A DNA stretch of 64,000 bases from Leucoraja ocellata (lineage: Eukaryota), in the NCBI GenBank assembly GCA_036785375.1, contig JAWMAR010000061.1, positions 9,300,001 through 9,364,000 of the forward strand, given 5' to 3'. A program made the translations under genes and the position numbers. Below are positions 5,151 through 63,484 of the stretch, one piece after another (position 1 is the stretch's first letter; every line of letters starts with the position of its first letter). Below the pieces are notes generated by a model. That model saw nothing but the letters and a program-made list of their open reading frames with translations, made no database searches and was not told the origin of the DNA.

Positions 5151-8100
5151 GTAGAAGAGAGAGAGGGGGGGGGGGGGGGTAGAGAGGGGGAGAGAAGGGA
5201 GAGAGAGGGAGAGAGAGAAGGGGAGAGAGGGTGGAGGAGAGAGGGGGGGGGAGGATAGAGAGGGGAGAGGAGAGGGGTTAGAGGGGTGGAGCGGCCGGTC
5301 CTCATGTNNNNNNNNNNNNNNNNNNNNNNNNNNNNNNNNNNNNNNNNNNNNNNNNNNNNNNNNNNNNNNNNNNNNNNNNNNNNNNNNNNNNNNNNNNNNN
5401 NNNNNNNNNNNNNNNNNNNNNNNNNNNNNNNNNNNNNNNNNNNNNNNNNNNNNNNNNNNNNNNNNNNNNNNNNNNNNNNNNNNNNNNNNNNNNNNNNNNN
5501 NNNNNNNNNNNNNNNNNNNNNNNNNNNNNNNNNNNNNNNNNNNNNNNNNNNNNNNNNNNNNNNNNNNNNNNNNNNNNNNNNNNNNNNNNNNNNNNNNNNN
5601 NNNNNNNNNNNNNNNNNNNNNNNNNNNNNNNNNNNNNNNNNNNNNNNNNNNNNNNNNNNNNNNNNNNNNNNNNNNNNNNNNNNNNNNNNNNNNNNNNNNA
5701 GAGGAGAGAGGGGGGAGAGAGGAGAGAGGGGGGGAGAGAGGCCGGTCCTCATGTTGAGGTAGAGGGAGGAGAGAGAGGGGAGAGAGAAGGAGGGGGGAGA
5801 GAGGAGGGGGGAGACGGGAGAGGAGAGAGGGGGGAGGAGAGAGCCGGGGCAAGGCGGGGGCAGCGGCCCGGGTTAGCGTCAGGTTGGACGTTCATGCTGA
5901 CAGAGATAATTTTCGCAGCTACTTCTATTCCCCTGTAATTTGGCCCGGTGTCCCTCAAACTTTCCTATCCATTAACCATTTGAAAGGGTTCTAAATGTTG
6001 CAATTGTTTGGGAATTTGGGGCCAATGTCTAAGCGAGGGGGGGGGGGGGGGGGTATGGTTGCAGAGCGAGCTATGGGGGTTTGGTAAGAATGGGGTTCAA
6101 GATGGGGAGGGGTTTGTATCAAAGAGAAAGATGGATTATTTAGATGGATTTTGTGCTCTTTGACCGTGGTTGGGTAGCCATGACCAGGTTTCATAAACTG
6201 GTGATTATGAATCCCATGAAGTGCCAGCCAGGACGGTTATACTGAACACAAGCCTGCCATCTGGTGTGTGCCTGAAACACCTTGCAGAATTACAAGTGTT
6301 GATGCCTGAGAAACCATGGATGGTTTGTGTAATAGCTGGGTCCTGACCATTACTGGTGAGAATGTGTGATTAACACGGTCTTCTCTGACTCCCAGTGTAC
6401 AGGAAGGATTGGCATCAGAGTTCACTGGTCTCACGAAGGAGCTGTATGATTTCCAGAAGACACAGGAGGCGGACGGGACTGCCGGGAGCCCTTTGAAGGA
6501 GTTGGTTGTAGAACAATTTGATGAAGAGCAGATCTGGCAGGAAATTGAATTACAGAATCATTCAGTCTTGAACTATTTTAAAAGGGCAGTTGCTTTTCTT
6601 GTGCAAGACAATCTCAGCAGAGTGAATAGAGTGGAAGAGGCAGAGATTGATACGCCTGGAGAGGAGTTTGAAACAGAAAATGATTATGAAGTAGGGGAGG
6701 GCAGTGATGATGAGAAAGAGTTAAAATCTGAGAAAGTTAATGAAAAAGACCAGTCTGAAGAGCTTAGTGATGAAGACTCCGACATCAACTTTGATATCGA
6801 TGAGCTTGTGAAAAAAACTAAACTGCAAAAAAAGAGCCCCAAACTCCCAAGCTCAGACCTGGATGATAAATTTTTCAAACTTTCAGAAATGGAAGCTTTT
6901 TTAGAGAAAGCTGAAAAGGAAGAAGGAAATAGTGAAGAGAATGATGAAGATGATATAGATTATTTTGAAGATATTCTCTCTGAGGATGAAGAAATTATAA
7001 AAACAAACTCCAGGAAAAAGGTAATCTCACAAACTTCACTGATCCTGGTAGAGTCTTAAGAGTCACTGGCCCTTCTGGTCAACTTGTCCATGGCGACCCA
7101 GATGCCCCATCTATACTAGCCCATTTCCTGCTAAACCTTTCCTAGCCATGTAGTATCTGCTGTAACTACCTCCTCTGGCAGCTTGATCCATATACCTATT
7201 AGCCTTTGTCTGAAAAGTCACCCCCAAGGTTCCCATTAAATATTTCCCCTCACCTTTGGTCTATGTCTTCATGTTCATGATTCCCCTACTCTGAGTAAAA
7301 GACTGTGCATTCATTTCACCTATTCCCCTCATGATTTTATCCCCTCATCGATAAGATCATTCCTCAGTCTGCTGCGCACCGTGAATAATAAAGTCTTAGC
7401 CTGTCCAACATCTCTCTGTAGCTCAGGCCCTTGGTCCTGGCAACATCCTTGTAAATCTTACCTGCACTTTTCCAGCTTAACATCTTTCACGTTGGAACTT
7501 TATAGGAGCAGAAATAGGCCATTTGGCCCATCAAAACTACTCTGGCATTCATTCATGACTGATCTCTCCAGTAAATATCTCCAACCTGGAGCTAGATTGG
7601 AACGGCATACCGTTGGACAACTGAACTCATACAATCCAATGTACCTCTAAGCATAGGCTTGAATTGGGCATCCTATCCTTGTGATTGCAGACTCTGCGGA
7701 AGTACTGTAACAATGCATCGCACATCTCCAAAGATTCACAGAGATCTGGGTCCTCTGAATGTCAGGATCAGGTGTAGGCTGATGTGACGTGACTTGTTCC
7801 ACAGCCAGTGGATCCAATTTGTACATCATTTAGCACATAGAACAGTGCAACCCACAATGTCTGAACTAAACATAAGCTGTCAAACTCATCGCATGTGACC
7901 CATATCCCTCCATTTGACAAAGATCCAAGAACAGGTTGGCTGTCTGTCCTACCCATGGGATTAGCAAATGGATGGGTGTCTCACAGAAATTGCAAATAAG
8001 GAGCCCTGTGAAATTGTTTATGTATTTAAATTTTGGTTGTTATCGGTCAGGCGAAGAGTTCCAGGAACATGCAGTACAAGGATTTCTTCGACCCAATTGA

Positions 8101-11100
8101 GGAACCTGGAAGAGGAGATGGCAAAGAGGCAAAACGGGAACTAAAGCGGAAAGAATTAGAGGATGACACTACTCTGGATGAGTATGTTCCCCCAAGTTAC
8201 TTTCTCCATTTCTTTTGCTCCACCTCTAGTCAACATTCCTCTGATGCTCCATCCGAGAAACCTCATTCTCTCTTGAGGAAGATGGTGGATGGCAATGTAA
8301 CAGTGGCATTTTAATCCCCTCAGTCTAATTAGCCCTCATCCACTTCATTCTTTAGAAATGCAAGTTACAGGAGTGATGCTGGTGAGTGGAGTTGGACTGC
8401 ATGAAGATTCAGTAACAGGTGTTTGATCTGAGCCTGTTTCCATGCGATGTGATTCTATGAACACGTAATATGCTGCACAACATATCTATGCAGCCAGTTT
8501 GTTTTATAGTCTGGTCCTTTTGAGGGAGCTAACAACGTTACTCTTCTATCTGCACTGCTCTTGAATAGCATGCTCCAAAAACCGTGCTCCCGTTCACATA
8601 CAGTTTATCTCACTGACATCAGTCACAAAAAGCTGGAGTAGCTCAGTGGGTCAGTAACTTCTGCATAACACTGGGCTAGTACATAACACTGGGCTAGTAC
8701 ATAACACTGGGCTAGTACATAATGCTGGGCTAGTACATGACGCCGGGCTTCTAACACTACAACCTGTAAAGACTCGTCTGCAGATGATGAAGACTATGTT
8801 GGACAGTGTTGTATTAATTGGTTTCTTTCATGAACCAGAGACAAGGAGCAGGTGGAAGCCAAGAGGGCCAAGGGCAAGAAAGTCAGCTTTGATCTTTCCG
8901 ATGACGGTGAGGAAGATGACCTGACCAGAGTGATAGAAGGGAAGAAGCTGGAAGTGGAAAAATCAAACTTTGAAAAACGCCAAGAAAAGGTGAGTATTAT
9001 AATTCAAAGACAGTGTTTGTGGCCTGACATTAACTGAAGCTTGTTATAACGTCACGGGAGTCATACGGAGAATGCAGAGTTTTGAGAGTGAATCAGTGGA
9101 CACACATTTCAATTGGATGGTGAGAACTTTACATTTTGTGGGCAGGAGCAGAGAGAGGGTGGGATTGAGTGGAAGTATATGGAATTATTGAAGGCTGGTG
9201 CAGAGTAAAGATGAACAGGGTGCTCATTGTGATGGAAGGGACATACAGTTAACTGAAGAATTGAATAGGAGAATTTTACTTGGATTGAGACTAACATATA
9301 CTGTTGAAACAAGTAACAAAATGCTGCCTGACCTGCTGAGTTACACCAGCGTTTTGTGTTGTTTTTCTTCTGGAATTGGTGATGTTGCAGCGACCAGGTC
9401 AACATTTAAGGACAGATTTTGTTGGCAATAAAAGGAACAGGATTGTGACATGGATTAGCATCCAGCGTATGCAGAGTTAGCACCAGCATGAGAATCGGTC
9501 TAGAATAGCTCCAGTCCAGTCTCTAATTTCCATGTCATTCAATCGCTAACTGCTGTGGTTTGCTCCCTATAGTTGAAAGCACACATCCAACAGCTGGAGA
9601 AAACAGCCTTGGAGCAGAAGCCATGGCAGCTCCTGGGAGAGGTCACAGCTCAGAAACGGCCTGAGAACAGCTTGCTGGAAGAGGACCTTCACTTTGATCA
9701 TGCGGTCAGGAAAGGTGTGTCCTATGCATAATCATTGAGGAGATGGAGGCAAGGAGTTTACTCATTCTGTGGGAATGTTGGGGTGCGTGGGGGGTGACTA
9801 GCTGGGAAAGCAACACTATGTTATGGTCTGTCGAGTACTGAGTCTGTGTCTATCCCTAGCACCTGTCATCACTGAGGAGACAACACTTCAACTAGAGGAT
9901 ATCATTATCCAGAGGATTAAAGACCAGGTCAGTACTATTTTGCTGTTAACTCTGAACCAGCTTGTTTGATGTAGGTGACTAAGAGGGACTGCAGAGACCA
10001 GCGTTCCTTATCGTGCTTCTGCTGTATAGACTGGCAGTGGAAGGTTGATTGAGAATCAAGTGCTCTCTCCACAGGCGTGGGATGATGTCTTGCGTAAGGA
10101 GAAGCCCAAAGAAGAGACGTTTGAATACAAAAAACGACTTACTTTGGACCATGAGAAAAGTAAACTGAGTCTGGCTGAAGTCTATGAGCAAGAATATCAA
10201 AAGCAAACTCAGGTAAGAAATTACTAATCTTGGACAACAGAGTAGAAGGATGTAAAAGTGAAACTGAACCCCGGATAGAGTCACACCTTTAGGGACCAGG
10301 GAGACCTGGCAACTTAAGGCATTATTGGTTAAAATTTACAATGCAAAAACATAACTGGAGGTGAAATTTGCTGCTTTAATAACTGTGATTTAATTTTGGT
10401 AAGACTTATGTTAAAACGGGTAAAGGTCTATGAGCTTGCTCTCAAGGCAGAGAATGGCCCTCGGTCTGACCCTAGTATTGAGTGATGGTGATCTTGTATC
10501 AGAGAGGTGATGTCTGCTCTTTATTTCTATCCTCATCACTGCAGCAAAAATCAGAAGTGGAGGAAAACCAACAGTACACAGAGATCCAGAAAAAGATTGA
10601 TTCTTTATTCCTCAAATTGGATGCGCTCTCAAACTTCCATTTCACCCCCAAACCGGTGAGTAATGAAATAACGTAACACCAACGAAGGTCTGGAAACAGT
10701 TTGGTCGGGTAGAGCTGTGCTGTTTTTGACACCATCAGAGCTTGCTAGCTACATTGATGCTGCCAGCTGTTACCTGCCTAGTGAGCCTCATTGTGCTCAG
10801 CAGCCCTGCAAGTCAATCCCAGGCCCGACGCAGCATTGTAAGTAAGTCATTGTTCCGTTTCAGGACATATGACAATAAAACTCTCTTCACACATGCAGTG
10901 TGGGCACTTGGTTAAACTGTAATGTGACAAGTAACCATGTGAGTGAAGAGTTTGGATTCTTCACTAAGTTAGGAGAGAGATTTCGACCAAGATTATAAAA
11001 ACAATATTCACTTTTGTTGAAACGGAGTTGTTTCAGACGGGTGCTGTGGAACTTCACTGGTACCAGCACCAAAACCAAACACCACAAATCACTGGAGTTT

Positions 11101-12955
11101 CCTAGGACTTATTTATCTGTAGATGACTGCATCAACTGTTTGTGCTCCTACAGATGCTAGTCCAACACAGCAGTCACAGCATCTGACCTTCTGATCATTG
11201 TACCATGAGAAATTTTATCATCTACATAACTGTTTTGTGAGCCATCATGTACAGTAAAATGGAGATTAACTGCAGCTACCTTCCACACTGGGATTGTGAA
11301 TACCCCCCCACACACAATGTGAATACCCCTCTTCCACTGTGTTTACAAGCCCCCATACTTCATAGTATCTCCATACTTCATGACTGAGATGGGACTCGTA
11401 TCTGAGCTGTGTTGATGGGGGGCTGTAGGCATGAACTCGGACATTCTTTGTCTCGCTTTAATGTTTATTTTTAAACAAAACATGTTTATTTTTTCCAGCC
11501 TGTGCCTGAGATGAAGGTAGTTTCCAACCTGCCTTCCATCAACATGGAGGAAGTGGCTCCAGTGAATGTCAGTGATGCCACGCTGTTGGCACCAGAGGAA
11601 GTCAAGGTAAGAGATGAAAGCAGAGCAAAGTCAGAGATAATGGGGGTGAATGCTTCTTGGAGCGACACTGAGCTCCAGTTATCAGTTGAGCTAGTGTGGG
11701 GGTGGCCATTGATTAATGTGAGTCCCTCCTTGTGAGGTCAGTGGGTCTGCTAGAGAGTGATCCAGTGCACATTGGGTGTGTTTGGGGCAGAGCCCAGGTG
11801 TCATTGTGTGAGGTTCACACGTGGTTTACCCGACTGCAGCCCCTCTGTCAGGCTGGATGTTTGAACTGGTGAGAGCAGGAATGTGCTTGGTGCTGGAGTT
11901 GTGCTGACTGGTGACAATTACAGGGGAAGGGCCGAGCTGGAGCGCTGCTGGGAGAGGATGAGAAGACATCGACTGACAAGAAGCGGGAGAGGCGGAAGAA
12001 GAAGAAGCTGAAGCGACTGCGACTACAGGCAAGAGAGATGCGGCAGAAAGAACTGGAGAAGCAGAACGTGAAGCTGAGCGGCAAACAAGAGAAGGAAATG
12101 AATGCTGAGAAAGCAAAGAAACTGAGTCAGCAGGGAAAGGTGGTATTGCTAAAGGTGAGCGCAGATTGTGATTACCATCAGAGCTGCTGTACAATCCTGC
12201 CGTCTAATGTTCCTTGTGTGCATTGAAGAGAGGAAGTGAACTCCACTTTGCAGTGTTTTATTTCCATTGTATAATTGCTCCCCAGTGACAGTAAATCACC
12301 ATGAATCAATCCTAGTGTAATCACCAATTGAATTACCTCTCAACAGATTTTAAATCCAATCGAGCTAGCTCCATGCCCTGCACTGTGATTTCAAATCCGC
12401 TAACATCTCCCATTACAGTTGCTTCATGACAAATTAAAAACAACCAGAAAATACAGAGAATAAACATGATCTATCAGCTTTAGGGACACCTTCAGGGACT
12501 GTACCCCGGGTAGATGATTGTGGTGGGATCCTTCAATAGCTGAAATGTGAACTTTTCTTTAAGCTGTTACTTATCTTCACTAGTTGCAGCACTATCTGAT
12601 TGCTGGATCAGTTTACTTGCTTAATTAGATTTAGTATTTCGATTAATTAGATTAGTAATTCCCTCAATCTCCCCCTTTGCATGCATTCCCGATGCCTGAA
12701 CCACATAGCACTGTTCATACAGTAAATCCTAGCACTGTAATTCACCACAAGCAAGAAATAATACAGCATTTTAAAATGGACTAATGTTGTTTTTATTACA
12801 AAAAGGATGAAGGAAAAGACAAGAGTTTGCGTTCATCAAAAGCCTTCTTCTCCCATTTACAAGATCAAGTGAAAGCAGAGCTCAAAGGAGTCAAGGTTGG
12901 AGCGAAGAAGAAGAATATTCACGGGAAACTTTCAGGAAATAAGTTGAAACTTTAA
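5083..12955 (+). CDS. MPHOSPH10: M-phase phosphoprotein 10 (U3 snoRNP / SSU processome Mpp10), 11 coding exons, about 640 aa
   Basis: Exons join(5083-5150,6396-7020,8051-8181,8839-8989,9573-9714,9860-9927,10075-10212,10545-10655,11499-11606,11924-12154,12806-12955). All introns are GT-AG with consistent phases; total 1923 nt. Mpp10 motifs: [112 protein letters not shown], ending KLKL*. Confidence 0.96.
5151..5845 (+). repeat. GA-rich tandem repeat containing copies of the MPHOSPH10 exon 1 3' end; spans N gap 5308-5699
   Basis: GGCCGGTCCTCATGT(TGAGGTAG) recurs at about 5133, 5293 and 5740, separated by GA-rich spacers. Confidence 0.8.
8664..8750. repeat. 18-bp minisatellite (ACATAACACTGGGCTAGT) x about 4-5
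   Basis: Directly visible tandem copies. Confidence 0.85.
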
Positions 12956-13069
12956 TACAGATCCCTTCACGCTGTCTACATGGTGTCATCCCCGCTTCCT
13001 GCCATTGCTGTTATGGAGCATAGCATTCCAAAATGTTTCTTATATAAAACAAGCTGCGTCCATTAAAAC

Positions 13070-13075
13070 AATAAA
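13070..13075 (+). terminator. MPHOSPH10 polyadenylation signal
   Basis: AATAAA, preceded by ATTAAA, about 115 nt after the stop codon and followed by T-rich sequence. Confidence 0.65.
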
Positions 13076-13499
13076 TTTTCTGCTTTTTGTTAGCCTCAGT
13101 CTGTGAAAGAACTTTACCAGATAATTGACCGAAAATCTGATCTTCAGACAACACAAAGATGTTGGAAATACCAAGGACACTTCAGTGTAGTGCATCAGGG
13201 ATTTCAAGTCGCTGATCTTTTATCCGAACCAGAAAATGTTTTAAAATGCTGAGAAATGGAGAGAATAAAAGCTTGGGAAGGAAGCTGTGTGTTGTGTTGG
13301 ATTAAAGCACACATGTGACTGTTAGCAGTTTCTGGGTAATGTTCACATCATGGACTGATTGTGTAAATTGATCAATAGAAACATGTCCAGCTGATCATAA
13401 ACCTTTATACTTAACATCTCAATTGTTATTTGAAAATGCCACGGAATGATTAAGTATTGTATTGTCAAGAGAATTTGAAGTTGTATTGAAATATTAACA

Positions 13500-14000
13500 T
13501 AGACACAAAATGCAAACGGCCTCGACCTGAAACATCACCCATTCCTTCTCTCAGGAGATGCTGCCTATCCCGCCGAGTTACTCCAGCATTTTGCGTCTAT
13601 CTGTTGGAGTAATTAATGGGGCCAGGCAGCATTTCTGGAGAGAAGGAATGGGTGACCTTTTGGGTTGAGACCTTTCTTCAGGCGGAGTCAGGCGAGAGGG
13701 AGACACAGAGATAATTAAATGTAATGAGTGAAAATAAGAACATCAAAAGAGATGTGAATCAAGGACAATGTAGAATAGATTATTGTTAACTAGTAGGCAT
13801 CAAAGCAGGCAGATATATAGATTTAAATGGGGACAGTCAGACTGGTCGGAGAACTGGGGAGGGATGGAGAGAGAGAGAAAGCAAGGGTTACTTTGTTAGA
13901 GAAGTCAACTGCTGGGGTGTAAGCTGCCCAAGCGAAATATGAGATTTCTCCAATTTGTGCTGGGCCTCACTCTAACAGTGGAGGAGGCCCAGGACAGAAT
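13500..14000 (-). mobile_element. Penelope-like fragment with inverted termini
   Basis: Same terminal motif family, plus the reverse complement of the endonuclease C-terminal region (GCTGCCCAAGCGAAATATGAG..CCTCACTCT..GGAGGAGGCCCAGGACAGA). Confidence 0.6.
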
Positions 14001-14280
14001 GGTCAGTGGAGGATGGAGTGGGAATGTGGAGAGGGGGAATGTGTTTAGAGTGGGTGTTGAGGGGGAGTTAGTATTTACCTAGTGTTTACAGGGGGGGGGC
14101 GTTAAGGCGGACTGAGGGGAACGGTCACCGGCAGGGCGACTATTTGGCTGGCACCTGGGTTGTGATTGTGGATTGGTGGAGGAGGCAGTGGCGGCGGCAG
14201 CTGCAGTGGCTGGTCACACTGGGCCGGGGAGGGGTGGCTCTGGGGGCAGCGTCCGGGCAGCCCGCGCTGTCCATCCGCTA

Positions 14281-14900
14281 GGGGGCGGCACTGGGCACTG
14301 GGTGGGGAGGGGTAGAGGGGGCGGGACTGGGGGGGTGGGGTAGAGGGGGCGGAACTGGGGGGAGGAGTAGAGGGGGCGGGACTGGGGGGAGGGGTAGAGG
14401 GGGCGGGACTGGGGGGAGGGGTAGAGGGGGCGGGACTGGGTGGGGGGGGTAGAGGGGGCGGGACTGGGTGGGGAGGGGTAGAGGGGGCGGCACTGGGCAC
14501 TGGGTGGGGGAGGGGTAGAGGGGGCGGGACTGGGGGGGTGGGGTAGAGGGGGCGGGACTGGGGGAGGGGCAGAGGGGGCGGCACTGGGCACTGGGTGGGG
14601 GAGGGGTAGAGGGGGCGGGACTGGGGGGAGGGGCAGAGGGGGCGGCACTGGGTGGGGGAGGGGGCGGGACTGGGGGGAGGAGTAGAGGGGGCGGCACTGG
14701 GTGGGGGAGGGGGCGGGACTGGGGGGAGGGGCAGAGGGGGCGGCACTGGGTGGGGGAGGGGGCGGGACTGGGGGGAGGGGCAGAGGGGGCGGGACTGGGT
14801 AGAGGGGGCGGGACTGGGGGGAGGGGCAGAGGGGGCGGGACTGGGGGGAGGGGCAGAGGGGGCGGGACTGGGTAGAGGGGGCGGGACTGGGGGGAGGGGC
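14281..14900 (+). repeat. G-rich VNTR of about 30-bp units carrying GC boxes, directly upstream of the FAN1 ATG
   Basis: Unit approximately GGGGGCGGGACTGGGGGGAGGGG(T/C)AGA; about 15 GGGGCGGGAC copies. Confidence 0.9.
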
Positions 14901-14937
14901 AGCGCTGTCGATGCCTTTGCTATAGGATCTTTGGTCG

Positions 14938-17900
14938 ATGCCGCCGCCGAAGCTGAAGCGGCCGCGGGTCGCGGTGACGTCACCCACCCGGGCCCCGTTG
15001 TCCCCACGTGACGCGGCGCCGGGTCCCGGCCGCGTGAACAAGTTGTCGCGGCGACACCGCGGGAAGAGGGAGCGCCCCCTGGGGGGGGGGGAGGAGGAGG
15101 GAGCGCCCCCTGGGGCCTCGGGCTCGGGTGATGCAGACGCCGCCTGCCCTCCCTACTACCTGGGGAACTTCCAGCGGGTCGTGGCCGCGGTGCTGCGGAG
15201 CCCGGACGCCGAGCTGTTGAACGAGGATGACGGCCGCTGGATCGGCGCGTTCGGGCGGCTCTCGGGTAAATGAGGCCAATGTTGCCCCCAGATCAGATGC
15301 TGCCCGGCCCTGTGACCCCTCACCCCCCCTCACACCCCCAACACCCCCCCCCCCTCACACCTACACCCACCCCCACCCCCCCAACACTGGCTGGTTCCCC
15401 AACACCCCCCCCCTCACCCCTCACCCCAAAATTGCACACAATACTCCAGGTGTAGTCTCACTAGGGCCCTGTACAACTGCAGTAGGACCTCCTTGCTCCT
15501 AAAACATCGACATTGTTTCATTAAAGGGTGGACACAGAATTGGTTTCCATTTATCAAATTGGACCAACAGCAGCTAATATTCTTCAACACAGATTATATG
15601 CTGCCCTGTCATAGGACACAGGATTATAAATTCAGTTTAAGTCCCCCGTATGTCTTTGATATCTAGAAATCTGATTTTTATTCTAAACCAAAGATGAAGA
15701 AATGTCTCCTCACTCAGACACAAATGGCCTACCAGTTATTTTCACATTATAATCCCTTATTCTACACACTTAGAAAACAATTTCCCTAAATATACCGTAA
15801 TAAAATGTGTACATTTCCAACGAGGTCACCTCTCATTTTTCTAAACTAGAATGCTAGCCTACACTCTGTCTAGTGCGGCAGCTCTGCATCAGTCTGCTGA
15901 ATCTTTGCTGCATTTTATGGCAATTATATCCTTATGTAAGGATCCAAAATTGAACCAAGTACTGAAGATGTGGTCTCACCAAGATCCTGTATAACTGTCC
16001 TAGAATATCATTGTACTAAATTCCTCGCACATTGAAGACTATTATGTTTGCCTTTCTTAACAGCTTGTTACATCACAGTGACTTGTGTTAGATAACCAGA
16101 CCACTTAAACGTAAACATATACAGGAGACACAAGGAACTGCAGGTGCTGGAATTTTAAGCAAATGTGCTGGAGGAACTCAATGGGTCAGGCAACATCTGT
16201 GGAGAGAATGGTCAAGCGATGTTTTGAATTAGAATCATAGAATCCTACGGTGTGGAAGCAAGTCCTTTGGCCCAACTTGCCCAAGCCGACCAACAGACCC
16301 CCATCTACACAAATCCCACCTGTCCGTGTTTGGCCCATAACCCACTAAACCTATCCCATGCATGTACTATGTCTTTTAAATGGTATGATAGTACCTGCCT
16401 CAACAACCTCTTTCGGCAGTTCGTTCCATAGACCCACCACCCGATATGTAATAACAGTTACCCCTCAGGTTCCATTACATTTTTTCCCCCTCACCTTAAC
16501 CCTATGTCCTCTGGTTCCTTTGCCCTAATCTGTGCAAAAAGACTTCTCAAACAAATCCAAATTGATTTCCTATTTATAAATCCACAGTGAATAGAGCATA
16601 AATTGGCTGTATAATTATTTTTGAAGTGTTCAAATCTCCTTTATTGTGGCTTTGATCATTATTCTCTCCCACTGAGACCAAGCTCACAGTTCACTGGTTC
16701 CTCCCTCCACTGTCAAGTTTCCTACCCTCCAGTCTACAGCAATCATTCGCAGTGTATGGGATCGTGGGAGATTTTAACCACAGCATCCCCTCTCTGCAGC
16801 CACTGCTTCTATATATAAGGTTGTGTACAGATTGTCAGAACCGGCGGAGTTATAAGTTTTCAGCTTCATTCATTTTATCTTAATTATTACGTAATCATTT
16901 TATTTCCTCGTTTGAATGGACTCTCTGGTTCTTGGATATATCTGCGAGTTTTTGCTGTGTCAGTGTTGTATTTGTTCAGTTCCTCCAGGAACTGTACATC
17001 CAGGACTCCTTGACTGGTCTGAGTCTAGTCCACCACACTGTGTGCTCTCTTGTGTCCTCAGCTGCTGCTCAGAAACTCTACGTCAGGCTTTTCCAACGGA
17101 AGCTGAATTGGCTGAAGGTGAAAAAACTGGATTATGCTGAGGTGTGCCTGGATCTGATGCCAGTCATCGATGAGCTGGCCCTGGCTGGCCTGGTTCAGAC
17201 AGGTATGGACCCCTTGAGTACAGTACTGCTGGAGGTAACGGAATGGTCGACATTTCAGGTTGAAACCCTGCATCAGGACAGAGTGAAGAAGGGGAATCGG
17301 TGGTATAAAGAGGAGAGGGTGAGACGGGTGGACAGAGGGGGGGTAAAGGGGGCCTGTGACCATAATGACCACCCCAGCTCCTGGTTACAGATCCCTGTCC
17401 CTACAATTACCTCAGCCTTCTCCACGACCAGTGAAGCCCAATGCTATCTAGACAAACATCTGATATTCTGCCTGGGTTGTGTGTATGAACATTACATTTA
17501 CCCTCCCCCACTCCTCCACCATCCCTGCAGCCCTTTCACTCCTCCATTGCCAACCCCCTCTTGTCCCATTTTCATTGCCCCCCCCCCCTCCTGGTTCCAT
17601 CCACACACACATTTCTCCCACAGCCCCCATTTGGTTCAGCTTCCACCCCATTCCCTAGTGGTTCCATTATCACCTTTCTTAGATGCCCACACTGGCAGCA
17701 TTGTTCCCACTTACTGTCCCAGCAGGGTTCACCTCCCCATCACCGTGCTCTATCCACAGGTCACCTCCTGCTTCTGTTATACCACTCCCTCTCCTTTATG
17801 CCGAGGTACAGTGAAAGGCTTTTGTTATCTATGACTCCACTCAATGCAGTGCCCTGGCCTCTGGCAGCATCTTCTCTGTCACTATCACCTTTAAAAATAA

Positions 17901-20900
17901 TTTGGCGAATTTGTAACTAAGTATTTGCTCCACAGCCCATCCCTCTAAAGGGCTCGGGGCTTGTTCTCGGGGCTCCGGGTTACGGCCCTGACTGTGGTCA
18001 GCCTGGGGCCGCTTGACCTCGCTGTCTCTGACTGTGTCCTTTCCCCCCCCCCCCAGAGGCTGAACTACACGATGTTTCCAACGGCCTGGCCCTGCTGACG
18101 GCTTCTGAACTCAAACTGCTGACCAGACACTTCCATTTGCGTGCCCAGGGTCAGAGGTTGGAGATGATTGGGTCATTGCTGAGCTTGGCCAAGCAGCAGT
18201 CGATCTTCAGCGTGAATCGTAGTCCTGGGTCTGCCATTCTGACCAGGTGCTACCACGCACACAGGCACTGAGTACTGGGGGGAGGGGAGCTGATGCCGGG
18301 AACAAGAGCACCCGGAGGAAACCCACGGAAGTCACAGGGGAATGTGCAAACTCCACACAGACAGCACCTGAGATCAGGTTGGAACCTGGGTCTCTGGCGC
18401 TGTGAAGCAGCAGCTCTACCCGCTGCGCCGCAGTGCCGCCTGTTGTGTTAGGCTGGGGGTGTGTGTGTTGTGTGTGAGGTACTAGGGTCAGTGTTGCTGG
18501 GGTCAGTGTGTTACTGGGGGTCAGTGTGTTACTGGGGGTCAGTGTTGCTGGGGTCAGTGTGTTACTGGGGGTCAGTGTGTTACTGGGGGTCAGTGTTGCT
18601 GGGGGTCAGTGTGTTACTGGGGGTCAGTGTTGCTGGGGTCAGTGTGTTACTGGGGGTCAGTGTTGCTGGGGGTCAGTGTTGCTGGGGTCAGTGTTACTGA
18701 GGTCAATGTTACTGGGGTCAGTGTTGCTGGGGGTCAGTGTGTTGCTGGGGTCAGTGTTTCTGGGGGTCAGTGTTGCTGGGGTCAGTGTTGCTGGGGTCAG
18801 TGTGTTACTGGGGGTCAGTGTTGCTGGGGTCAGTGTGTTGCTGGGGTCAGTGTGTTACTGGGGGTCAGTGTTGCTGGGGTCGGCGTTGCTGTGAGCGTTG
18901 CTGTCTGCATTGTGTCGGCACTGGTGCCCATGGTACTTCAGGGGTGGAAGCTGCAGCATTTGTTGTTCACCAGCAGCCTGTGGGGTGGTTGCTGGTTCTG
19001 CCGTCTGCTATCCAGTCAGGGATAAACTGGCGGTGCTCCCTGACCAGTTCTTGTGGTTTACTTGGTGTTGTCCCGGCACAGACGGGCAGTGCTGGCCTGG
19101 CATCAGTCACTGCACCGTAACCTGGCTCTTCAGCTGGTTGGTGGCCTGGGCTCGTGGGCAAGGTAGGGGCTGGCACAGGATGCAGAGAGGGCTGTATGGA
19201 GAGTAGAGGGAGGGGCTGGGGGTGGTGGCATTGTGGTCATTGTGTTTTCTGGGCCTTGTGTTGTCAGGATGAAGGAGATGGTTGGGCCCTGTGTACGCAT
19301 ATCCATAGCTGCCCGCGCCGTCTTCTCACGAGTGCTGTTGCTCTACTCCCTGACGGAGCCGATGGACGAGGAGGATGCGGCCTGCGCCGGTCAGAACCAG
19401 TTGTCTACACTACTGATGGTCAACATGGGCCGGCTCACCTTCCCACATTACACCATCCACAGGGAGGCCAAGATCTTCCAGAACAGAGAGGACTTGCTCA
19501 GGTAAAGGAACACCTGCACCCAGTGTGGGAACATCCAGTGTGGAAACATCCCGTGTGGGAACACCCAGTGTGGGAACACCCAGTGTGGGAACACCCTGTG
19601 TGGGAACACCCAGTGTGGGAACACCCAGTGTGGGAACACCCCGTGTGGGAACACCTGCATCCAGTGTGGGAACATCCAGTGTGGGAACACCCAGTGTGGG
19701 AACATCCAGTGTGGGAACACCCTGTGTGGGAACACCCAGTGTGGGAACACCCAGTGTGGGAACACCCAGTGTGGGAACACCTGCATCCAGTGTGGGAACA
19801 TCCAGTGTGAGGCCACTTACATCCAGTCACGAGTTCACAGAAGAACTCCAGGTGGTCCGGTTCAGGAACTCTGCCTGTGCAGGCACTGATCCAGGGATCA
19901 TCATGATTTAGGGCATTTAGCTGATATGTAACTGAATATATGGACTGATTATTAGATCTATTGTTGGTGGAGCCTCTAGCAATCGTTATATTACTTGCTT
20001 AATTCTCACTTCTGAAGTGTGAGCTGTGTATTTTGTTAAATCTCTTCCTAAACATATCCAAATCTTTCACTGGTAGTAAATTCATTGGGGCAGGTGCAAG
20101 AGAGGGGACTGGTATAAAGAACGGCAATGTTGGGGTGTACATTCACAGATCATGAGCATCACAGTGGCAAAAGTTTATTATGCAAGACATGAAGTACAAA
20201 ACTGGAGAATTCTGGTGTTCACTGCAAAGATTTACAATGGTTTGACAGATTAGAGAATTGTAGTGATGTTGGAGATGATAAACACAGAAGCTCAGGTGGC
20301 GTTACAGTTAGTTATCACTGAGACGTGTGAGCACCGGCCCCTGATGTTTCAACAGCATTGCTGTCAGGGGCAGGGGGCAGATTAGTTACAGCTGTTAAAT
20401 GAGGGCCTGAATGGCCTGTTTCTATGATTGAGAGGGATGTGGTGACTGGCTGCGTGGTGTTGCAGGTATGAAGCAGCCTGTCACACGCTGGCTGAGCTGG
20501 GAGCAGCAATGGCCGCCAAGGATTGGGAAGTTGCTCTGCAGATTTATCAAAGGGCCAAGGAGACGTGGAGTCACCTGGACAACAGCAGTAACCTCTGGTA
20601 AGGACGGCTCCACATTCACGCCCTATATCCCTGTAGCTAGCCTAAGCTCTCCAGCCTCCCCTGCCCAGCAACTACCTACAGGCTCTGTGGAAGCACCTTG
20701 CAAAGCCACTAATGTGGCCACAGGCATTCGAGGGAAGGGAAACATTAGTTTGTTATGGTGGGGGTTTGAGAAACAGTTCCAACTAACACACCTCACTTTC
20801 ATACATTGATTAATTGTTGAAACTTGACTAAATCAAAGCTCTCAGTCTTGAAGAGAGAGTAAAGGGATTGGATAGGTGACCAACTTCCTGTTAAACGTTT

Positions 20901-23900
20901 CAGGGAAACTATGCCTTTGCATGGGCCGACTGGGGTGGGGACACGTGGGCTGAAGGGGGAGGGGGGGGATAAGGGTGGGGACACGTGGGCTGAAGGGGGA
21001 GGGGAGGGGAGGGGGGGGGGATAAGGGTGGGGACACGTGGGCGGGAGGGGGAGGGGAGGGGAGACAAGGGTGGGGACACGTGGGCGGGAGGGGCTAAGGG
21101 TGGAGAGTGGTAGGTTTGACCCTGCGTTCTGGGACGTGCTCAAACTACCGAGAGGTGACTCTCCCCGCCGTGACGGCTGAACCGTGCGGTGATTGCAGGT
21201 TGTGGCGGCAGCTGCCGGTTTACCTGCGATGCTTCACCGCCGGCTGGGTCTACACCATTGTCCGCTGCAGAGGGGTGGAGGTTCTACAGCGGCTGCACAT
21301 GTACACGGTGAGGATGGTGCTGGGGGGGGGGGGATGGGGGCAGGACTGGGGTCAAGGTTGCCTTTGTTGGTTTACGGAGAACTCGCTGCCAGCGGGCGGT
21401 GGCACCATGCTTGATGCTTCTGGAAAGGCAGAGGGTACAGAGCTTGTGGGGGCTGCTGGGATTAGTGTAGATGGGCAAGGTGATTAGCATAGCTGGGGGG
21501 TGGGGCGGGAATGGAAGTGGGGGGGAGAGGGAAGGAGGGGCTGTATTGTGCTGAGCTCAGTGCCGCTGTCCAATGCCCTTGTTGTTGCCAGGAGGCGGTG
21601 GTGGAGTTGAGGAACCTCCTGGACCAGAGCGACTTCTGCCCAGAGAACCGTGGCCACTGGTGGGACCGGCTGTCACTCAACCTGCAGCAACATCTGAGAC
21701 AGCCGGAGCAGGTAACTGCGGCAACCCCGGTAACCTCATAACCTCTAACCCCAGTAACGGTGCCGTGTTTACATGTTGTGCCGACGGACCACATGTTGTG
21801 GCCACACCTACACTAACCCACACCGCCCGGCTGGGTCCAGCTTCACCGGGAAGGCGGTGATTCACACACAGCTTGTCTCTATCATTGTTCTGCTGCCATT
21901 GACCCAGCGCTTGTGACTTTGCTGCAGGCAGTGGCGTGCATAAGGACAGCGCTGGCTGATATACGGGTGCGTGCGGGACACCGACTGGCACTGCAGCAAC
22001 GGGCACAACGCATGCACGACTCCCCGAGCTGCAGGCAGTGGCACCACCTCCTCCAGGAGCTGCCCGTCATACACGTGGAAGATGTGCCACATGTGAGTAG
22101 TGAGGGGCACGACCAAGTGGCCCCTGGGCAAGACTGTGGCCCCTGGGGCAAGAGAGAGGGTGGGCCTGCTTGCCATCATTGATCCAGGTGACGAGTATCG
22201 GTCTGGAAGTCATGTTGCTGCTCTACTCTATAAGACCTTGGTGAGGCCACATTTGGAGCATTGGCACTAGAGGATGGCAACTCTGCCTGCTGGTCCCAGA
22301 TGAGGAGATCATGAGCATCAAACATTACAATCGCTCCACTCTTAAATCATTATTTTTCTGCACACTGTCATTGTAATCATGTACAGGTTTTTCTTTCACT
22401 GGACAGCAAGCAACAAAAGGTTTTCACTACCTCAGGTGACAATAAACTAAACTATTGTGCAGTTCTGGTTGCCTGATTACAGGAAGGATGTGGAGGCTTT
22501 GAACAGAAGACGCTGTATGTTTTCATCACTATTTTGTCTCCAAATCTCAAGCCGTGACAGGCCGGCCTGGCTGAGAATTTCTGCCATTTATTGTTATTGG
22601 TCAGTGTTCGGTCCACAGCCCAATTGACCTGCGTGTGGTAGTGGTCAGTGGGGTCAGTCCGTCACTCATTCAGATACGTCATTAGGCAACATGAGTGGAC
22701 ATCATGTTACAAGGTGTTGGTGAGACCACACCTGCTGTAATGTGTGCAGTTCCGGTCGGCATTGCTACAGGAAGGAGGTGATTGAACCAGAGAGGGGGAA
22801 GAGAAGATTCACAAGAGGATAGCTGAGATGTAAAGAGTGTCTGGAGAGGCTGGGATAGTTTTCCTCGAAGCAAAGGTGACCTTATTCAGGTTAATAACAT
22901 GAGAGTCAGAGATACTCAGTCTTTTCCCCAGGGTAGGGAAGTCTAAAACTAGAGGGCATAAGTTTAAGGTGAGAGGGGAAAGATTTAAAGGCATCTAAGG
23001 GGCAACTTATTTCACAAGAGGGTGGTGGGTAAATGGAACGAGTGCCAGAGGAAGTGGTAGAGGCAGATATGTGTTCACAGATGTTTGGACAGGTACATGG
23101 ATAGGGCAGGTTCAGAAGGACACAGACAGGTGGGACGCTCTGTTGCTTTGCTGTATAACTCCATCCCTCAGTGCTCTCCTCTCTTAATCAGGTGCGACTA
23201 CCTGGTTCAGGAGGAAACACACTGTTCAGGTGCCTAGACTTGGCCTCTGGCTTGCTCCAGATTGTACTCTCCCTCCCTGTGTTGCACTGACAGCAGTCGC
23301 CACTGGCCATTTGGCAGATATTCTGAGGCCTTTCTGAATTTCACCTTTGTTCTTTGCAGGTGACGATAAAGGGCAGACCGTGCCCGGGAATGGGCTCTGC
23401 CCGGTTCCTGCTGGAGGAGGAGCCTGGCTCTGCAGTGATCTGTTCGGTGGAGGTGCTGTGTCTGGCTCACTACCGCCAGCTGGACTTTGATCAAGGTAAT
23501 GGCCGCAACAATGCTGCTAGTATAGTTGGGGAGATGTCAGCAGTCTGCAGTAATCTGTCACTCTCTCTACACAGGGATACATGGGGAAGGGGCCACGTTC
23601 CTAACACTATTCGGACTTCTCTTTTGGGAGATCATCTTCCTGCCGGGAATACCAGATGTTTTCCGGAATCCATTTCAGGTACGGGCTGTCGTTCTGAGTG
23701 ACACCATGGTGTGTAACAGACACTCGGTTAGCAGGACCTGTGCTGTGGTCCAATGCAAACTAAAGTAGATACAAAATTTTCTTCAGGATTCAGTATTTAT
23801 ATAACTTTTGAAAGCAAATTGGGTAATTATTTAAAATTCCAGGTTTAGGGAACAGGCTGCACCAAACTCTCGAAGTGTTAGAGTAAATCAGCGGGTCAGG

Positions 23901-25958
23901 CAATATCTCGAGAACATGGATTGGTGATGTTTCAGGTTGGGACCCTTCTTGAGACATGTTCTCCAGAGATGCTGCCTGATCTGCTGAGTTACTACAGCAC
24001 TCTGTATCTGTGTAAACCAGCATCTGCAGTCCCTTGTTTCTCTCATTATTCAGCAGCCAGAGTAACAGGAAACTGGGTCTTGGCTCCTCAACTTCCCTGC
24101 TGTGTGCAGAGATTTAGCCAACGGTTCTACAGCAGGGCCGGGTACAGCTGAGCTTGTCTAGTTGACTTGTATCTGTGTTTGTGCCCCAGACCTGTCCTTT
24201 GGATCTGTACACAGACTGTTTCTACCGGAACCGGACAGAGCCCATTGAATCGAGGCTCCGGCTCCTGCAAGAAGCTTCCACAGACACTCTCCACGCTCTC
24301 ATGGCTGACGTGTGGAACACTCACAAAGACACAGCGACTGCTTTGGTGAACTGGGAGATCTTCCGTTCCATTCAGCAGGCCCAGGTAGATGGCTTCTAAT
24401 CCAATCCAGAACCACACACACTGTTTACATCAACACTCACTTCCTTGTCTTATTGTTCTAGAGCCAGAATCGTAGTGTAGGTTGTACAGTAGATTCCTCT
24501 CACACGTACTGTATCGATTATAGTCACATCAGCTGGGAAACGGGGTCTTTGGAGAATCTGACGACTATTTATTGGAGGAAATCATGTGTAATAACAAATT
24601 CTTATTGAGACATTAGAGAAGATGCCGTTAACAAAATGGATTGCTAATGGAAAGACTAGTGGGAGCATGGATTGGAAGTTGGTTTAAGGGGAGAGAGCAG
24701 TGAGTGACAGTGCCCTGGCCCAGACCGTGGTGATGTCCAGCCAGTGCCAAAGGATCAGCAATGGTTACCCTGGTTACCCTTACATAGAAAATAGGTGCAG
24801 GAGTAGGCCATTCGACCTTCGAGCCTGCACCGCATTCAATATGATCACGGGAGTTCAAGATAAAGTTTACAAATCTGATTAATACAAGCTTGAACATGTG
24901 GCAGTGAGGAAGCGATAGACAGAAAGAGTGACGCGCAGTGGTAGAGTGGTGAAGTTTGCAGGACTGGGGTCGTGGGTGAAGTAGAGAGGAGTCTGCTGTT
25001 CCCAAACAGACATGGAACACAAAGTGGGTGACAGCTCAATCTCCACGTCTTGTCACGTACCCGTAGGATATGAAGATGGGTGAAGATTTCCCAGTAATGG
25101 TTCAGGGGATTTCAGCTCTAAGGTGAGACGGGAGGAATGGGTTGTTCTCCAAACAGGTCAAAGATGGTGAGTGGAGGAACCTGTTCTTATTGCAGACTGA
25201 ACAATGAAGCTACAGTTCCAACATTGCTCACTGGATGGCAGTGTGGAGTGGATGGACCAGTCTGATTACAGGTCAGACTGACAGAGATGGGGAACTCAAA
25301 ACACTCCAAAGCCTGTCTTTGTGAATGTCGGTGGCAAAGCCAGCAAGGACGTGATGGTGCCCGACTGTGGCAAGTAGTGATTGCTGCAGGGAGCTGCGTT
25401 TGACTACATTGTCCATTGGTGAGGGTTAGCTTGCACCCTGTCCTGATGTAGGGACAGATTGTGGGCTCACTCCATTTATTCGTTCTGTGACTGTTTGTGG
25501 GATGTTTCAGAGCCTGGTGAGCTGCCTGGGTGGTCTGTTCCTGAGTGGCGTGTGTAGGATCCTGGCGGAGGACCCAAGGCAGGGCCGTGGAGGCCTACCC
25601 GACCTAGTGGTGTGGAGCAGTGAGAGGCTGCAGTACAAGGTGAGGGGGGGGGGGGGGGGGGGGGGATGAGTGGGGAGAGGAAAGAGGGAGAGAGGGGTGA
25701 GGAGGGGAATCTCCAGTTTACAGCACTTCAGTAAGGCATTGTGAAATGAATGGCAGTCTGGAGTGACTTCCTGCCTCTAAAATGCTTCTAACCCAAATGT
25801 TTATTTTCTCTTGTCTCCCAGTTGGTGGAAGTGAAAGGCCCGAGTGACCAGTTGTCGCACAAGCAGAGGGTCTGGCTGCATCGGCTGCAGAAACTGGGGG
25901 CGCCGTCGAGGTTTGCCATGTGAGTGTGGTGGGAGCACGCAGCCTGCAGCTCAGTTGA
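14938..25958 (+). CDS. FAN1: Fanconi-associated nuclease 1 (SAP, TPR and VRR-nuc domains), 13 coding exons; short N-terminus; apparent 1-nt frameshift in last exon
   Basis: Exons join(14938-15265,17062-17202,18057-18246,19268-19501,20466-20597,21199-21307,21592-21711,21928-22092,23360-23495,23575-23678,24190-24384,25511-25639,25822-25958). GT-AG and phase-consistent. Motifs: [68 protein letters not shown], catalytic GGLPDLVVW and [15 protein letters not shown]. Confidence 0.95.
17220..17560. mobile_element. Penelope-like fragments in FAN1 intron
   Basis: Terminal motif on the minus strand (GTCCTGATGCAGGGTTTCAACCTGAAATGTCGAC) and a degenerate EQHLIFCLG-like coding remnant on the plus strand. 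Confidence 0.5.
18305..18440 (-). mobile_element. V-SINE fragment
   Basis: Reverse complement has the tRNA-like head GGTAGAGCTGCTGCTTCACAGCGCCAGAGACCCAGGTTCC and the V-domain start. Confidence 0.7.
18484..18882. repeat. 16-19-bp minisatellite GGGGTCAGTGT(GT)T(A/G)CTG
   Basis: More than 20 tandem copies; source of the spurious GSVLL/GQCC ORFs. Confidence 0.92.
19508..19808. repeat. 15-bp minisatellite GGGAACACCCAGTGT starting just after a FAN1 donor
   Basis: About 19 copies; source of the spurious HPVWE ORFs. Confidence 0.92.
20930..21090. repeat. G-rich repeat with GGGTGGGGACACGTGGGC x4
   Basis: Four copies, each containing CACGTG. Confidence 0.8.
22180..23115 (+). mobile_element. Interrupted CR1 LINE 3' fragments
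   Basis: [10 protein letters not shown]-like remnant and [10 protein letters not shown]-like remnant (AAAACTAGAGGGCATAAGTTTAAGGTGAGAGGGG). Confidence 0.6.
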
Positions 25959-26245: not shown

Positions 26246-26719
26246 AATGAACACCAAAGGCTTTAAACAGCTGACATCTTTAATTCCTTTGCTTTGTCAC
26301 ATTGCTCTTACACCAACTCTGCAGCACAGCTCCACCCTCCCATGCAGGCTCTGACCACCTGCTGCCCCTTGATGTTAGTTCCTGCTCCTGGCAAAACTGG
26401 ACAATGACTTGTTCTGATCAACCCTGAATCCATCTCTTTTAGAAAGGTCCAAATCGATCAAACTGCAAGTGCTGATTTTGTAGCGTTCAAATAGGCTGAG
26501 GAGGTGGAGGGGCGGCAGTCAGAGTGAGGTTCCCTTCGCTAATGAGTATACAATGGGGGAGATGGCAGCAACTGCCCAGAGGGGAAGAGATTCTGTCATG
26601 AATGGGTGGGTGGGTCAGACAAGAGAGACTCCAGGTTAGGACACTGCCTCTCTGGTGTCTGAACAGGTGGGTGAATTGCTCTAGATCATAATAAATTAAA
26701 GTTTATAAAGGGAATTACT

Positions 26720-26884
26720 TTGTAAAATCGAACAAAACTTGCTACTGCACGGCCCAGGCAAATGGTGAGTAAGGCGCTCCTAAATTTGTTGCGCTATCGT
26801 GTACCGTTTTGGCTCTATTTCAGGAACATACATACATACATATATACACATGACAAGATGACACCTTCCGTTATATATATAGAT
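26720..26884 (+). mobile_element. Possible non-autonomous Helitron/Helentron-like end fragment
   Basis: CpG-rich core, then an (ACAT)n microsatellite and a TATATATATAGAT terminus. This architecture resembles DINE/HINE-like elements; the classification is uncertain. Confidence 0.3.
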
Positions 26885-29800
26885 AATGCCTTTGAGAAAC
26901 CAAACTATTAAACCACTAACATCAATACAATAATAAAATCTTACCTTTTTGCTCCTCTCTCTTGGCAAGTAATCTCCAAACAAATGAGTGTATATTGGTG
27001 GGAAATTCCAGTGCAATAGACATCAACTGTTGACTCCACTGGAAATCCCATGACAGACTGGAATGGCAGTTGTGCCCAGATCTGGCAGGTCGACACACTG
27101 ACTTACCTGAACATGTTGGAAGGAACTACAGATGCTGGTTTAAACCGTAAAGACAAAAAGCTGGAGTAACTCAGCGGGTCAGACAGACTTGAACACCAAC
27201 TGCCCCACAGCCAGGCAGACAGCCCTTCAGCCAGGTAGCTGAGGGTCCTGTTGCAGCTTTATCTGTCCCCAAGTTCACAATCACCTTCCTCACCTGGGAT
27301 AGACGCAACGGAGTAATTAAACACAAAACCATCAGCCTCCCACAAGTCTGTGACGTATGTTATTCTATAAAAGGCTCAATAAGTAAATGGACTCCAGTAA
27401 GAAACACTTGCCAATATATTTATTGCTTAAGGCACTCTGGATCAATTGATAAACGCAATGGAACCTAGATACATACAAGGCAACACAGGCAAGGTGAACC
27501 CACCTCTCCCTCATCCACTCTCAGAATCACCTTCAAAACATGACATTAAATAAAAGCAGGTGTTGAATAAATAGCCAAACACAGAAATAATCATACTAAC
27601 AAAAGGCACAAAGTGACAAAATCCACCAGGAATATTTCATGTACTGGTTCATTGGAGGAAACCTGAAGATAAAATAGATCTAAACGGTAGAAGGGTTTAA
27701 ATTGATCAGTCATACAGCTGTCTAGACATTGTCCAGCCCAGGGTCAGACACTCTAGACCAGGGTCAGTCACTGTCCAGACAAGGGCTCATTGCATTTCAG
27801 CTTCTGCCAGCAGTCCCAGTATTTATGAATATTTCCCTTGTATCTACACAACTCGATTTCAGATTTGAAAAGTTGCAATGATGGATCAAAGAAAGTGGGT
27901 TTCACCACAAACTGACCGTGAGCCATTGCAATTACTTTATAAACATTCCCATTCAAAGGTTCACACTGGTCTTGTTTGTGCTGTGGTGTTGGAGCCAATC
28001 CTCTTGGTCAGGCTGATCTTTCCAGGGTAAAAGTTTGGAGATTTTAAGCTTAGGCAGGCGCTACAGAGCGGGGAACAATCACTTCATGTACCTTAAATAA
28101 CAAATGCTTACGTACAACATAAATAATGAGTCAACCGCCTGCAAGTAAATCCTTGGTAGAGAACACGACACAAGATTGGCATAAACTGCAGACAGACAGA
28201 CACAACGCTCAGTGTGAGCTAACGATAGTGTGGTGGAAAATCTCAAACTATATCCATAACTAAGAAAACCAGTCTCCTTCAGAGACTGACCAGAGTTCTG
28301 CACCAGTTCTGGTGACTTTGCTGCTGTTACAGATACAGACAGCCCCAGTTCAGCACCTTCTCTCCAGCTGCCAATTGACCCAAACCAGTACTTGTTTCAG
28401 TTTTCTGAACCTACTTAAATGGTACTGGAGAGAGGGAAGTTGTGATTATAATGAGAGAATCTTGCAGTGGAATCCCAGAGCAAACACAACAGACATGAAT
28501 GTACTAGACCGCACAGCCACGGTGGGAGCACGCAAGCACCAGGGCATGAACACTTAGCCCAACATTGTCCTTGCTTATTCAAGAGTTAAAGGCAGTAAAA
28601 TGGTCCCGATTAGTAAAGATAAAGTGCAAACTCAGGTAGGAGCTGATCAGTGGCATTTTTGAGTAAAGCCTGGTTAATGGTGAGTAATTGGTGCCAGAGG
28701 CCATGTCAACTCCTCCTCCCCCCCCCCCCCCCCCCCCGACCGGCTTTGCAAATTCTGCATTTAATTTAATAAGCAGATTTCCCTATTAGTTGCTTTCCTT
28801 TCTCTAATGTCTAAGCAGCTTTTCACATCCAGCGTTTCTGCATTGATGGCACAACGCATGTATGTAAATGCATTTTGTGCGTTTTCAACAAGGTGGTAGA
28901 CTGGGTGTGAATATGTGGAGTTTAAGATTCATGGTGCACTGGAGACATGCTGATTATCACATCCTTCCTCAGTCTCTCATCCCAACTCCACAACATTCCC
29001 ACTCACGTCTAGGTCCCATGGTACTGAATTCACTCAGGATAATGAGTGCAGACCAGGTTGCCCTGTCTGCAACACACAGGCAACGCAGAGGAAACTCTGG
29101 TGTAAATGACCTGAAACTGGACAGACTATTCCCAGCCAGGAGCCGGCCGAAGCCGGCAGCCTTAACTTAAAAAGTGGACGCCTTTAGAAAAACTAGTTTA
29201 AGCAGACAGTGCAAGTTCAGACCTTTGACCAGCTCCAGAGTTGAGACAGGAAAGTGAGTGGTCAGAGTTACATTGCCACACAGAAAAACACCTCATAATG
29301 TTGCGATGAGTGTGTTTAAAATGGAGTCATCGCACGTCACACTTTAGAATTACAAGAGTAGGCACTTAAAGTTGCTCAAGTAAAATTTCAAATTATTTCC
29401 TTGGTGCGAGTGAAGGCAGCCCCTTCAGGGCCTGTACCCCAGGTAGACTCACACCTTCAGGGACTTTACGCCAGGTAGAGTCACACCTTCAGGGACTTTA
29501 CTGTCAGTGCGTATGACAGTGGTAACAATAGACCATGTGCTTCGGTTCTGATACGAGGTGGTCACTGATGTGCATTTCAGGTCTCATTAACTAATAATAA
29601 TCTGCCAGAAGCACTGTGCTGTATAATGAGCTGCTGGAGGCACGTCTGGCTTCAGTAGTACTGAGGTGTACATTCCTCTACTGTGTATCACCCTAGTCTC
29701 TAGGCATTCAGGGCCACTAGAGACAACAGTCACATTCAACCTGATCTTTCAATCTATAAAAATACTTTGTACAGGAATAGCTTCTTTTTAAATTATTTGA

Positions 29801-30775: not shown

Positions 30776-63484
<32,709 letters not shown>

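Follow-up and report, generated by a model that had tools for sequence, protein, structure and literature searches.

The window, a stretch of 64,000 nucleotides from Leucoraja ocellata (assembly GCA_036785375.1, contig JAWMAR010000061.1), carries on its forward strand a FAN1 gene of 13 coding exons, all with AG/GT ends, between MPHOSPH10 upstream and TRPM1 downstream. The features of the locus are as follows.

9573..13075, + strand: 3' part of MPHOSPH10, the upstream neighbour, with polyA signals at 13062 and 13070 and Pfam Mpp10 matches on two exons
14281..14900, + strand: GC-rich minisatellite with 23 GGGCGG boxes, compared with 35 across the whole window
14911..14925, + strand: in-frame uORF of four codons, from ATG 14911 to TAG 14923-14925, overlapping an acceptor-like sequence at 14914-14925
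14938..15265, + strand: first coding exon of FAN1, encoding the N-terminal tail (residues 1-71) and then the start of the HTH/core, with PYYL from 15151
14950..14967, + strand: basic motif KLKRPR, positional homologue of the NLS/DIP-box region
15022..15057, + strand: MIM remnant equivalent to human residues 152-163, with KLSRRH and L159 kept and the L155, L152 and I150 positions lost
15062..15115, + strand: two direct repeats of 23 nt, 31 nt apart, in the tail linker, read in different frames
17062-17202, 18057-18246, 19268-19501, 20466-20597, 21199-21307 and 21592-21711, + strand: FAN1 exons 2-7
18197..18199, + strand: Gln codon in exon 3 at the position of human R507, which contacts PCNA D232
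21928-22092, 23360-23495, 23575-23678, 24190-24384, 25511-25639 and 25822-25958, + strand: FAN1 exons 8-13
25894..25923, + strand: one-base shortfall in the last exon, shifting the frame to a stop at 25921-25923 (codon 695)
30776..42504, - strand: 3' part of TRPM1, the downstream neighbour of FAN1

Human FAN1 likewise has 13 coding exons and lies in the order FAN1-MTMR10-TRPM1, as described in PMC7990447, and the adjoining TRPM1 supports the orthology of the skate gene. There is no space for MTMR10 between FAN1 and TRPM1, where positions 26260-30776 (4.5 kb) hold a 200-N gap and short ORFs only; it may have been lost, have moved or be missing from the assembly. The end of MPHOSPH10 exon 1 seems to be duplicated at 5288-5307 and 5741-5760, on either side of a 392-N gap, which suggests a local mis-assembly. 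The GC-rich minisatellite is likely, to judge from its sequence, to be the promoter or 5' region of FAN1, and the copy number of this GC-box array might tune expression.

In the first coding exon, the reading frame begins at ATG 14938 with [10 protein letters not shown] and stays open as far as PYYLGNF at 15151; a GT donor follows position 15265. An earlier first-pass annotation of this DNA had estimated about 70 residues before PYYLGNF, and we counted 71 ahead of the PYYL proline; with only one Cys and one His before YYL, no C2HC finger is possible in this tail. The in-frame TAG that had been placed at 14923-14925 is present and also closes the uORF. The proposed length of about 706 residues holds with a conserved C-terminus, whereas the last exon as assembled yields 694 residues, with the conserved final strand gone. 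The C-terminus is intact in seven related skate proteins, and the one-base shortfall is probably an assembly error. Exon 1 had 99% identity to the skate protein P0002, a 705-residue Logan protein whose cluster includes FAN1 of Amblyraja radiata.

Exons 2-13 (17062..25958, + strand) encode the HTH, SAP, TPR and VRR-NUC domains, the last of these in exons 12-13. Pfam searches with P0002 placed PF21315, PF21169 and PF21170 (HTH, SAP, TPR) above the cut-off and matched VRR-NUC (PF08774) with E 1.8e-25, and PDB matches to skate FAN1 included human FAN1 (E 1e-225) and the PaFAN1 core (E 1e-27). The catalytic motif GLPDL...EVK was found in all 22 chondrichthyan rows, and R420, R424, K425, R679 and R710 were invariant in chondrichthyan FAN1. 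The skate gene resembles its human and bony-vertebrate counterparts in this HTH-SAP-TPR-VRR_NUC core, the number of coding exons, the TRPM1 neighbour and the catalytic motif.

Human R507 forms a salt bridge with PCNA D232, and the R507H and R507A variants are reported to lose activation by PCNA (PMC12078661; bioRxiv 10.1101/2024.10.09.617442). In rows aligned to primate FAN1, position 507 was Gln in 18 of 21 elasmobranchs and Arg in the chimaera and in 103 of 108 bony vertebrates; by eye, hagfish also appears to have Gln there. The K525 position, part of a FAN1 dimer mutant described in PMC7990447, was occupied by N, S or T in 19 of 22 chondrichthyan rows, with Thr in skates. Among 320 columns that hardly vary in bony vertebrates, 33 differed in most elasmobranchs, including R507, K525 and R706, and the stem branches of the core tree were long (0.25 for elasmobranchs, 0.24 for skates). 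At the R706 position, in exon 7 (21592-21711) and in what we take to be part of the 5'-phosphate pocket of FAN1, skates have His; H, C or Y was found in 17 of 21 elasmobranch rows and Arg in the chimaera and 107 of 108 bony rows.

These altered columns and long stems, together with the last-exon frameshift as assembled, are what would be seen if FAN1 were dispensable in these fishes and drifting to a pseudogene. We regard such decay as very improbable given that the ORFs and the PDL...EVK motif are intact throughout, the five basic residues named above do not vary, the closest skate proteins end in a normal C-terminus and FAN1 is expressed and spliced.

The silence of Pfam on a UBZ was not used as evidence, since even the UBZs of coelacanth and paddlefish FAN1 stay below the Pfam cut-off; a custom profile was built instead from 105 of 109 bony-vertebrate FAN1s. 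With this profile, 7 of the 10 outgroup N-termini were recovered (iE <= 5.4e-7), and the six frames of the whole window, divided into 2893 segments, gave no match (best iE 0.48), in agreement with the initial claim that the UBZ is absent from skate FAN1. Nine long FAN1 N-termini gave nothing significant in tblastn against the window (best E 0.29), and exon 1 alone had no match in PDB. The sole literal SPYF in the window, at 11368, lies inside an MPHOSPH10 intron. A PIP-profile match (iE 0.005) in the segment starting at 8333 was judged to be due to chance, as it also falls in an MPHOSPH10 intron and has no adjacent UBZ. The MLH1-binding region had been described as apparently missing; SPYF is indeed absent, but a remnant of the second motif, the MIM, is present at 15022-15057.

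Mapping of reads and contigs covered 14881-18470, with about 5% of each RNA run read. Contig X1, from the best-matching DNA run, spans 14881-15455 with 0 substitutions and one intronic indel, and that run may be the assembly's own source sample. Exons 1, 2 and 3 are joined in a 675-nt contig from a related organism, whose end lies at 14943. In two RNA runs from a close relative, the exon 1-2 joint was crossed by 8 and 21 reads and the exon 2-3 joint by 15 and 16. RNA depth at 14881-15000 was 0.66 and 0.3 in the two runs, short of the 5' end, and among the joints and loose ends listed, at a depth below 1, neither an RNA start cluster nor a read across the 14881 end was found. Skate FAN1 is orthologous and expressed, with splicing of exons 1-3 seen in the RNA of a close relative. 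Three Logan skate contigs with the 705-residue ORF were 2450-2470 nt long, from which we infer that there is no room for about 900 more coding bases.

A UBZ and SPYF could have been supplied by an upstream exon, a collapsed GC-rich repeat or a separate gene. Such a source might be sought behind the acceptor-like sequence, in the GC-rich VNTR or the three N gaps within the window, in an assembly with a probable one-base error in the last exon, or in 13000-14880, upstream of the mapped stretch and of the point that the RNA reached. We nevertheless consider it extremely improbable, because all six frames of the window are devoid of a UBZ, exon 1 is matched by the DNA contig, the Logan contigs leave no space for the missing codons, and the same short tail recurs in separate assemblies of 20 named species, where it starts with the homologous basic motif and has the MIM remnant downstream. 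To overturn this view, an exon spliced to position 14926 would have to encode a UBZ, which no part of the window does. Two protein database searches, with 8000 candidates scored in each, revealed no long chondrichthyan FAN1 paralogue. The short FAN1 N-terminus is genuine and not an assembly artefact.

Whereas the short tail had been attributed to this lineage in particular, it was found in every chondrichthyan examined, chimaera included. In a comparison set of the best 120 of 833 matches listed, plus Amblyraja, the UBZ Cys/His spacing pattern and SPYF occurred in none of 18 anchored chondrichthyan rows (20 examined, 2 truncated), compared with 94 of 101 other (bony-vertebrate) rows for each among the matches listed; the tail before the core measured 43-280 residues in chondrichthyans and 305-439 in the other rows. 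Most comparator proteins come from NCBI gene models, and a short protein in a database can result from 5' truncation. Short bony-vertebrate proteins such as P0141, P0148, P0154 and P0158 were not counted as further losses, P0148 being a 5'-truncated form of the 1001-residue bat protein P0227.

Motif profiles were applied to 22 complete chondrichthyan N-termini (the window, one further skate and 20 named species), with a match defined by a score that at most 1% of shuffles reached; 10 of 150 distant representatives, picked by rank and motif content, served as outgroups. The UBZ4 C2HC zinc finger (human 41-69) was absent from all 22. The MIP box SxYF, which occupies the S2 site of MLH1, was found in 0/22 (control positive in 6/10 outgroups), as was the N-terminal non-canonical PIP, for which the profile was the 14 residues before the UBZ and the control sensitivity 4/10 outgroups. 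The MIM profile was matched in 15/22 and the DIP profile in 11/22. The single chimaera species, represented by the current model XP_042199072.1 (767 residues), has a short tail like those of other chondrichthyans.

Hagfish, amphioxus and a hemichordate have both UBZ and SPYF, and the presence of both in bony vertebrates, hagfish and amphioxus points to a derived loss on the cartilaginous-fish stem. A quick maximum-likelihood tree of 45 FAN1 cores grouped the 16 chondrichthyan rows as a single clade (SH-aLRT 97, without bootstrap) and followed the main vertebrate groups, with all six long proteins of unassigned species falling among bony vertebrates. The absence of UBZ, PIP and MIP is thus likely to reflect a single loss on the chondrichthyan stem. 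The surviving basic/LSL motif and the KLSRR motif flank the missing block in their original order, which favours an internal loss over the absence of a first exon.

UBZ loss would, on the simplest reading of these sequences, recur separately elsewhere among animals. Isoform X3 of the lamprey Lethenteron reissneri (P0263) lacks a UBZ, as skate FAN1 does, but unlike the latter retains SPYF and a strong MIM, together with a PIP-like motif; as hagfish has the UBZ, this is possibly a second vertebrate loss or an isoform effect. No UBZ-profile match was found in Haliotis or Owenia FAN1; these two and the lamprey protein are single gene models. The FAN1s of S. pombe and Pseudomonas aeruginosa also lack the UBZ, and the first reading of the locus had likened the skate protein to such fungal and bacterial forms. 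The tree indicates that this likeness is convergent: the skate state is a secondary loss within an orthologous vertebrate FAN1 in which motif remnants are kept. Yeast Fan1 is reported to repair crosslinks without a UBZ (PMC7990447, PMC4803051), and S. pombe is described in PMC4402529 as having no FANCD2 or FANCI.

Human FAN1 binds FANCD2 directly through its UBZ and through DIP-box residues R15/L17, and DIP-boxes are noted to resemble NLSs (bioRxiv 10.64898/2026.02.24.707417). It binds MLH1 through two motifs, the MIP (126-129) and the MIM (152-163, with L155 and L159), which takes the S3 site of MLH1 (PMC13473659, PMC8324060, PMC8424649). For the window, KLKRPR did not score above shuffles with the DIP profile (265/1000). 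The MIM remnant was the best match to its profile in the whole window, although a weak one (iE 3.4) and borderline against shuffles (55/1000).

It is possible to read these vestiges as a rewired tail that still tethers FANCD2, by an LSL-type DIP-box or, in skates, by KLSRR, and MLH1, by the MIM remnant, with partners compensating. By eye, LSL lies among basic residues within the first 20 residues of 17 of 21 full-length chondrichthyan N-termini, often as R-L-S-L-R/K, a form that fits the DIP-box spacing R22-L23-x-x-K26 of USP1 (bioRxiv 10.64898/2026.02.24.707417). The pattern [KR]LS[RK][RK] occurs in 19 of 22 rows, 11 of these 19 having L or I at the L155 position, and a MIM-only peptide reportedly has micromolar affinity for MLH1 (PMC13473659, PMC8324060). 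However, none of the 19 KLSRR-type rows has I, L or V at I150 or L at L152 (ungapped register), and residues 145-151 strengthen human MIM-MLH1 binding about 500-fold, affinity weakening from 0.06 to 33 uM without that strand (PMC13473659). In addition, the LSL leucine is absent from three skates, which carry other leucines among basic residues and have Arg at the L155 position; Narcine lacks both motifs; and the resemblance of DIP-boxes to NLSs means that conservation may reflect nuclear import only. We therefore consider rewiring unlikely. The KLSRR remnant was likely kept for a basic-motif role, in nuclear import or as a surface for an acidic partner, rather than for tight MLH1 binding.

The reading we prefer, and think quite probable, is that skate FAN1 works as an active nuclease, largely on its own and only weakly coupled to FANCD2, MLH1 and PCNA. 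The UBZ, PIP and SPYF would have been lost from the tail once, before the chimaera/elasmobranch split, by internal deletion or erosion between the two flanking motifs. Elasmobranchs would then have lost the R507 salt bridge to PCNA and K525, and skates would have further eroded the DIP-box leucine and MIM L155. The resulting skate enzyme would depend mainly on its own ability to bind DNA in reaching crosslinks and flaps, with rapid SAP-dependent recruitment and crosslink repair retained. The slow retention that needs FANCD2, the binding to MLH1 and the cutting of CAG extrusions under PCNA stimulation would be weakened, most of all in skates. UBZ-dead FAN1 has been described as behaving in a similar manner, with fast SAP recruitment and rescue of crosslink sensitivity but without the slow FANCD2-dependent phase (PMC4803051). 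Deletion of the UBZ region failed to complement in Arabidopsis (PMC4402529), so that dispensability of the UBZ is not universal. The first-pass suggestion of uncoupling from FANCD2 and MutL appears most likely for skates and only partly applicable to sharks, most of which seem to have the DIP-like leucine and the MIM remnant. Conservation of these two elements in most chondrichthyans argues for some retained contact, and FANCD2, MLH1 and PCNA may have co-adapted in this class.

Cartilaginous fishes span more than 400 million years. As a tentative proposal, the class would have run for these >400 My on a FAN1 without UBZ, PIP and MIP, elasmobranchs, and skates most of all, having also dispensed with the R507 contact and most of the MIM, so that couplings that in mammals protect CAG repeats and restrain stalled forks were lost. 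If this is true, these fishes control repeats and forks in another way, or carry a constitutively free nuclease that would harm human cells.

Compared with human and bony-vertebrate FAN1, in which the tail comprises about 370-395 residues, the 71-residue skate tail has no PIP, UBZ or SPYF, its MIM is cut to the C-terminal half, and Gln and Thr stand at R507 and K525. The engineered human variants C44A/C47A, delta73-349, MIP* and R507H/R507A each remove one coupling that is naturally missing in skate (PMC8424649, PMC8324060, PMC12078661), whereas the skate combines the loss of all of them in a wild-type animal. Human cells with a MIP/MIM mutant were reported to be more sensitive to MMC and poorer in CAG slip-out repair (PMC8324060). 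The foremost explanation for how FAN1 modifies Huntington's disease lies in its contacts with MLH1 and PCNA, and R507, the PCNA contact mutated in one such modifier, is the position held by Gln in most elasmobranchs.

For the purpose of the FAN1 UBZ, described as dispensable for crosslink resistance and tied to fork restraint (PMC4803051, PMC7990447), cartilaginous fishes offer a natural test. They form a graded series, from chimaera (R507 kept) through sharks and rays (DIP-like and MIM remnants, Q507) to skates (almost nothing), that can tell the core nuclease function apart from each coupling and indicate which of residues 158-163 matter beyond MLH1. The distribution also qualifies the statement in PMC7990447 that multicellular eukaryotes show good conservation of PIP and UBZ. 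Among the titles and abstracts searched, we found no published account of a short UBZ-less chondrichthyan FAN1; such proteins are already present in NCBI annotations yet appear unremarked in the literature.

A link between the short FAN1 and the minisatellites of the region, mentioned as speculative at first, was rejected as unsupported: most of the 68 tandem-repeat rows in the window have long periods, whereas the FAN1-MLH1 studies cited deal with triplet repeats. Within the protein, many sharks and rays (P0016, P0021, P0022, P0004, P0224) have a lineage-specific minisatellite that codes for the linker from the MIM remnant to PYYL, with tails of up to 280 residues. The shortest tail, of 43 residues and without LSL and KLSRR, was that of Narcine bancroftii (P0238 / P0018).
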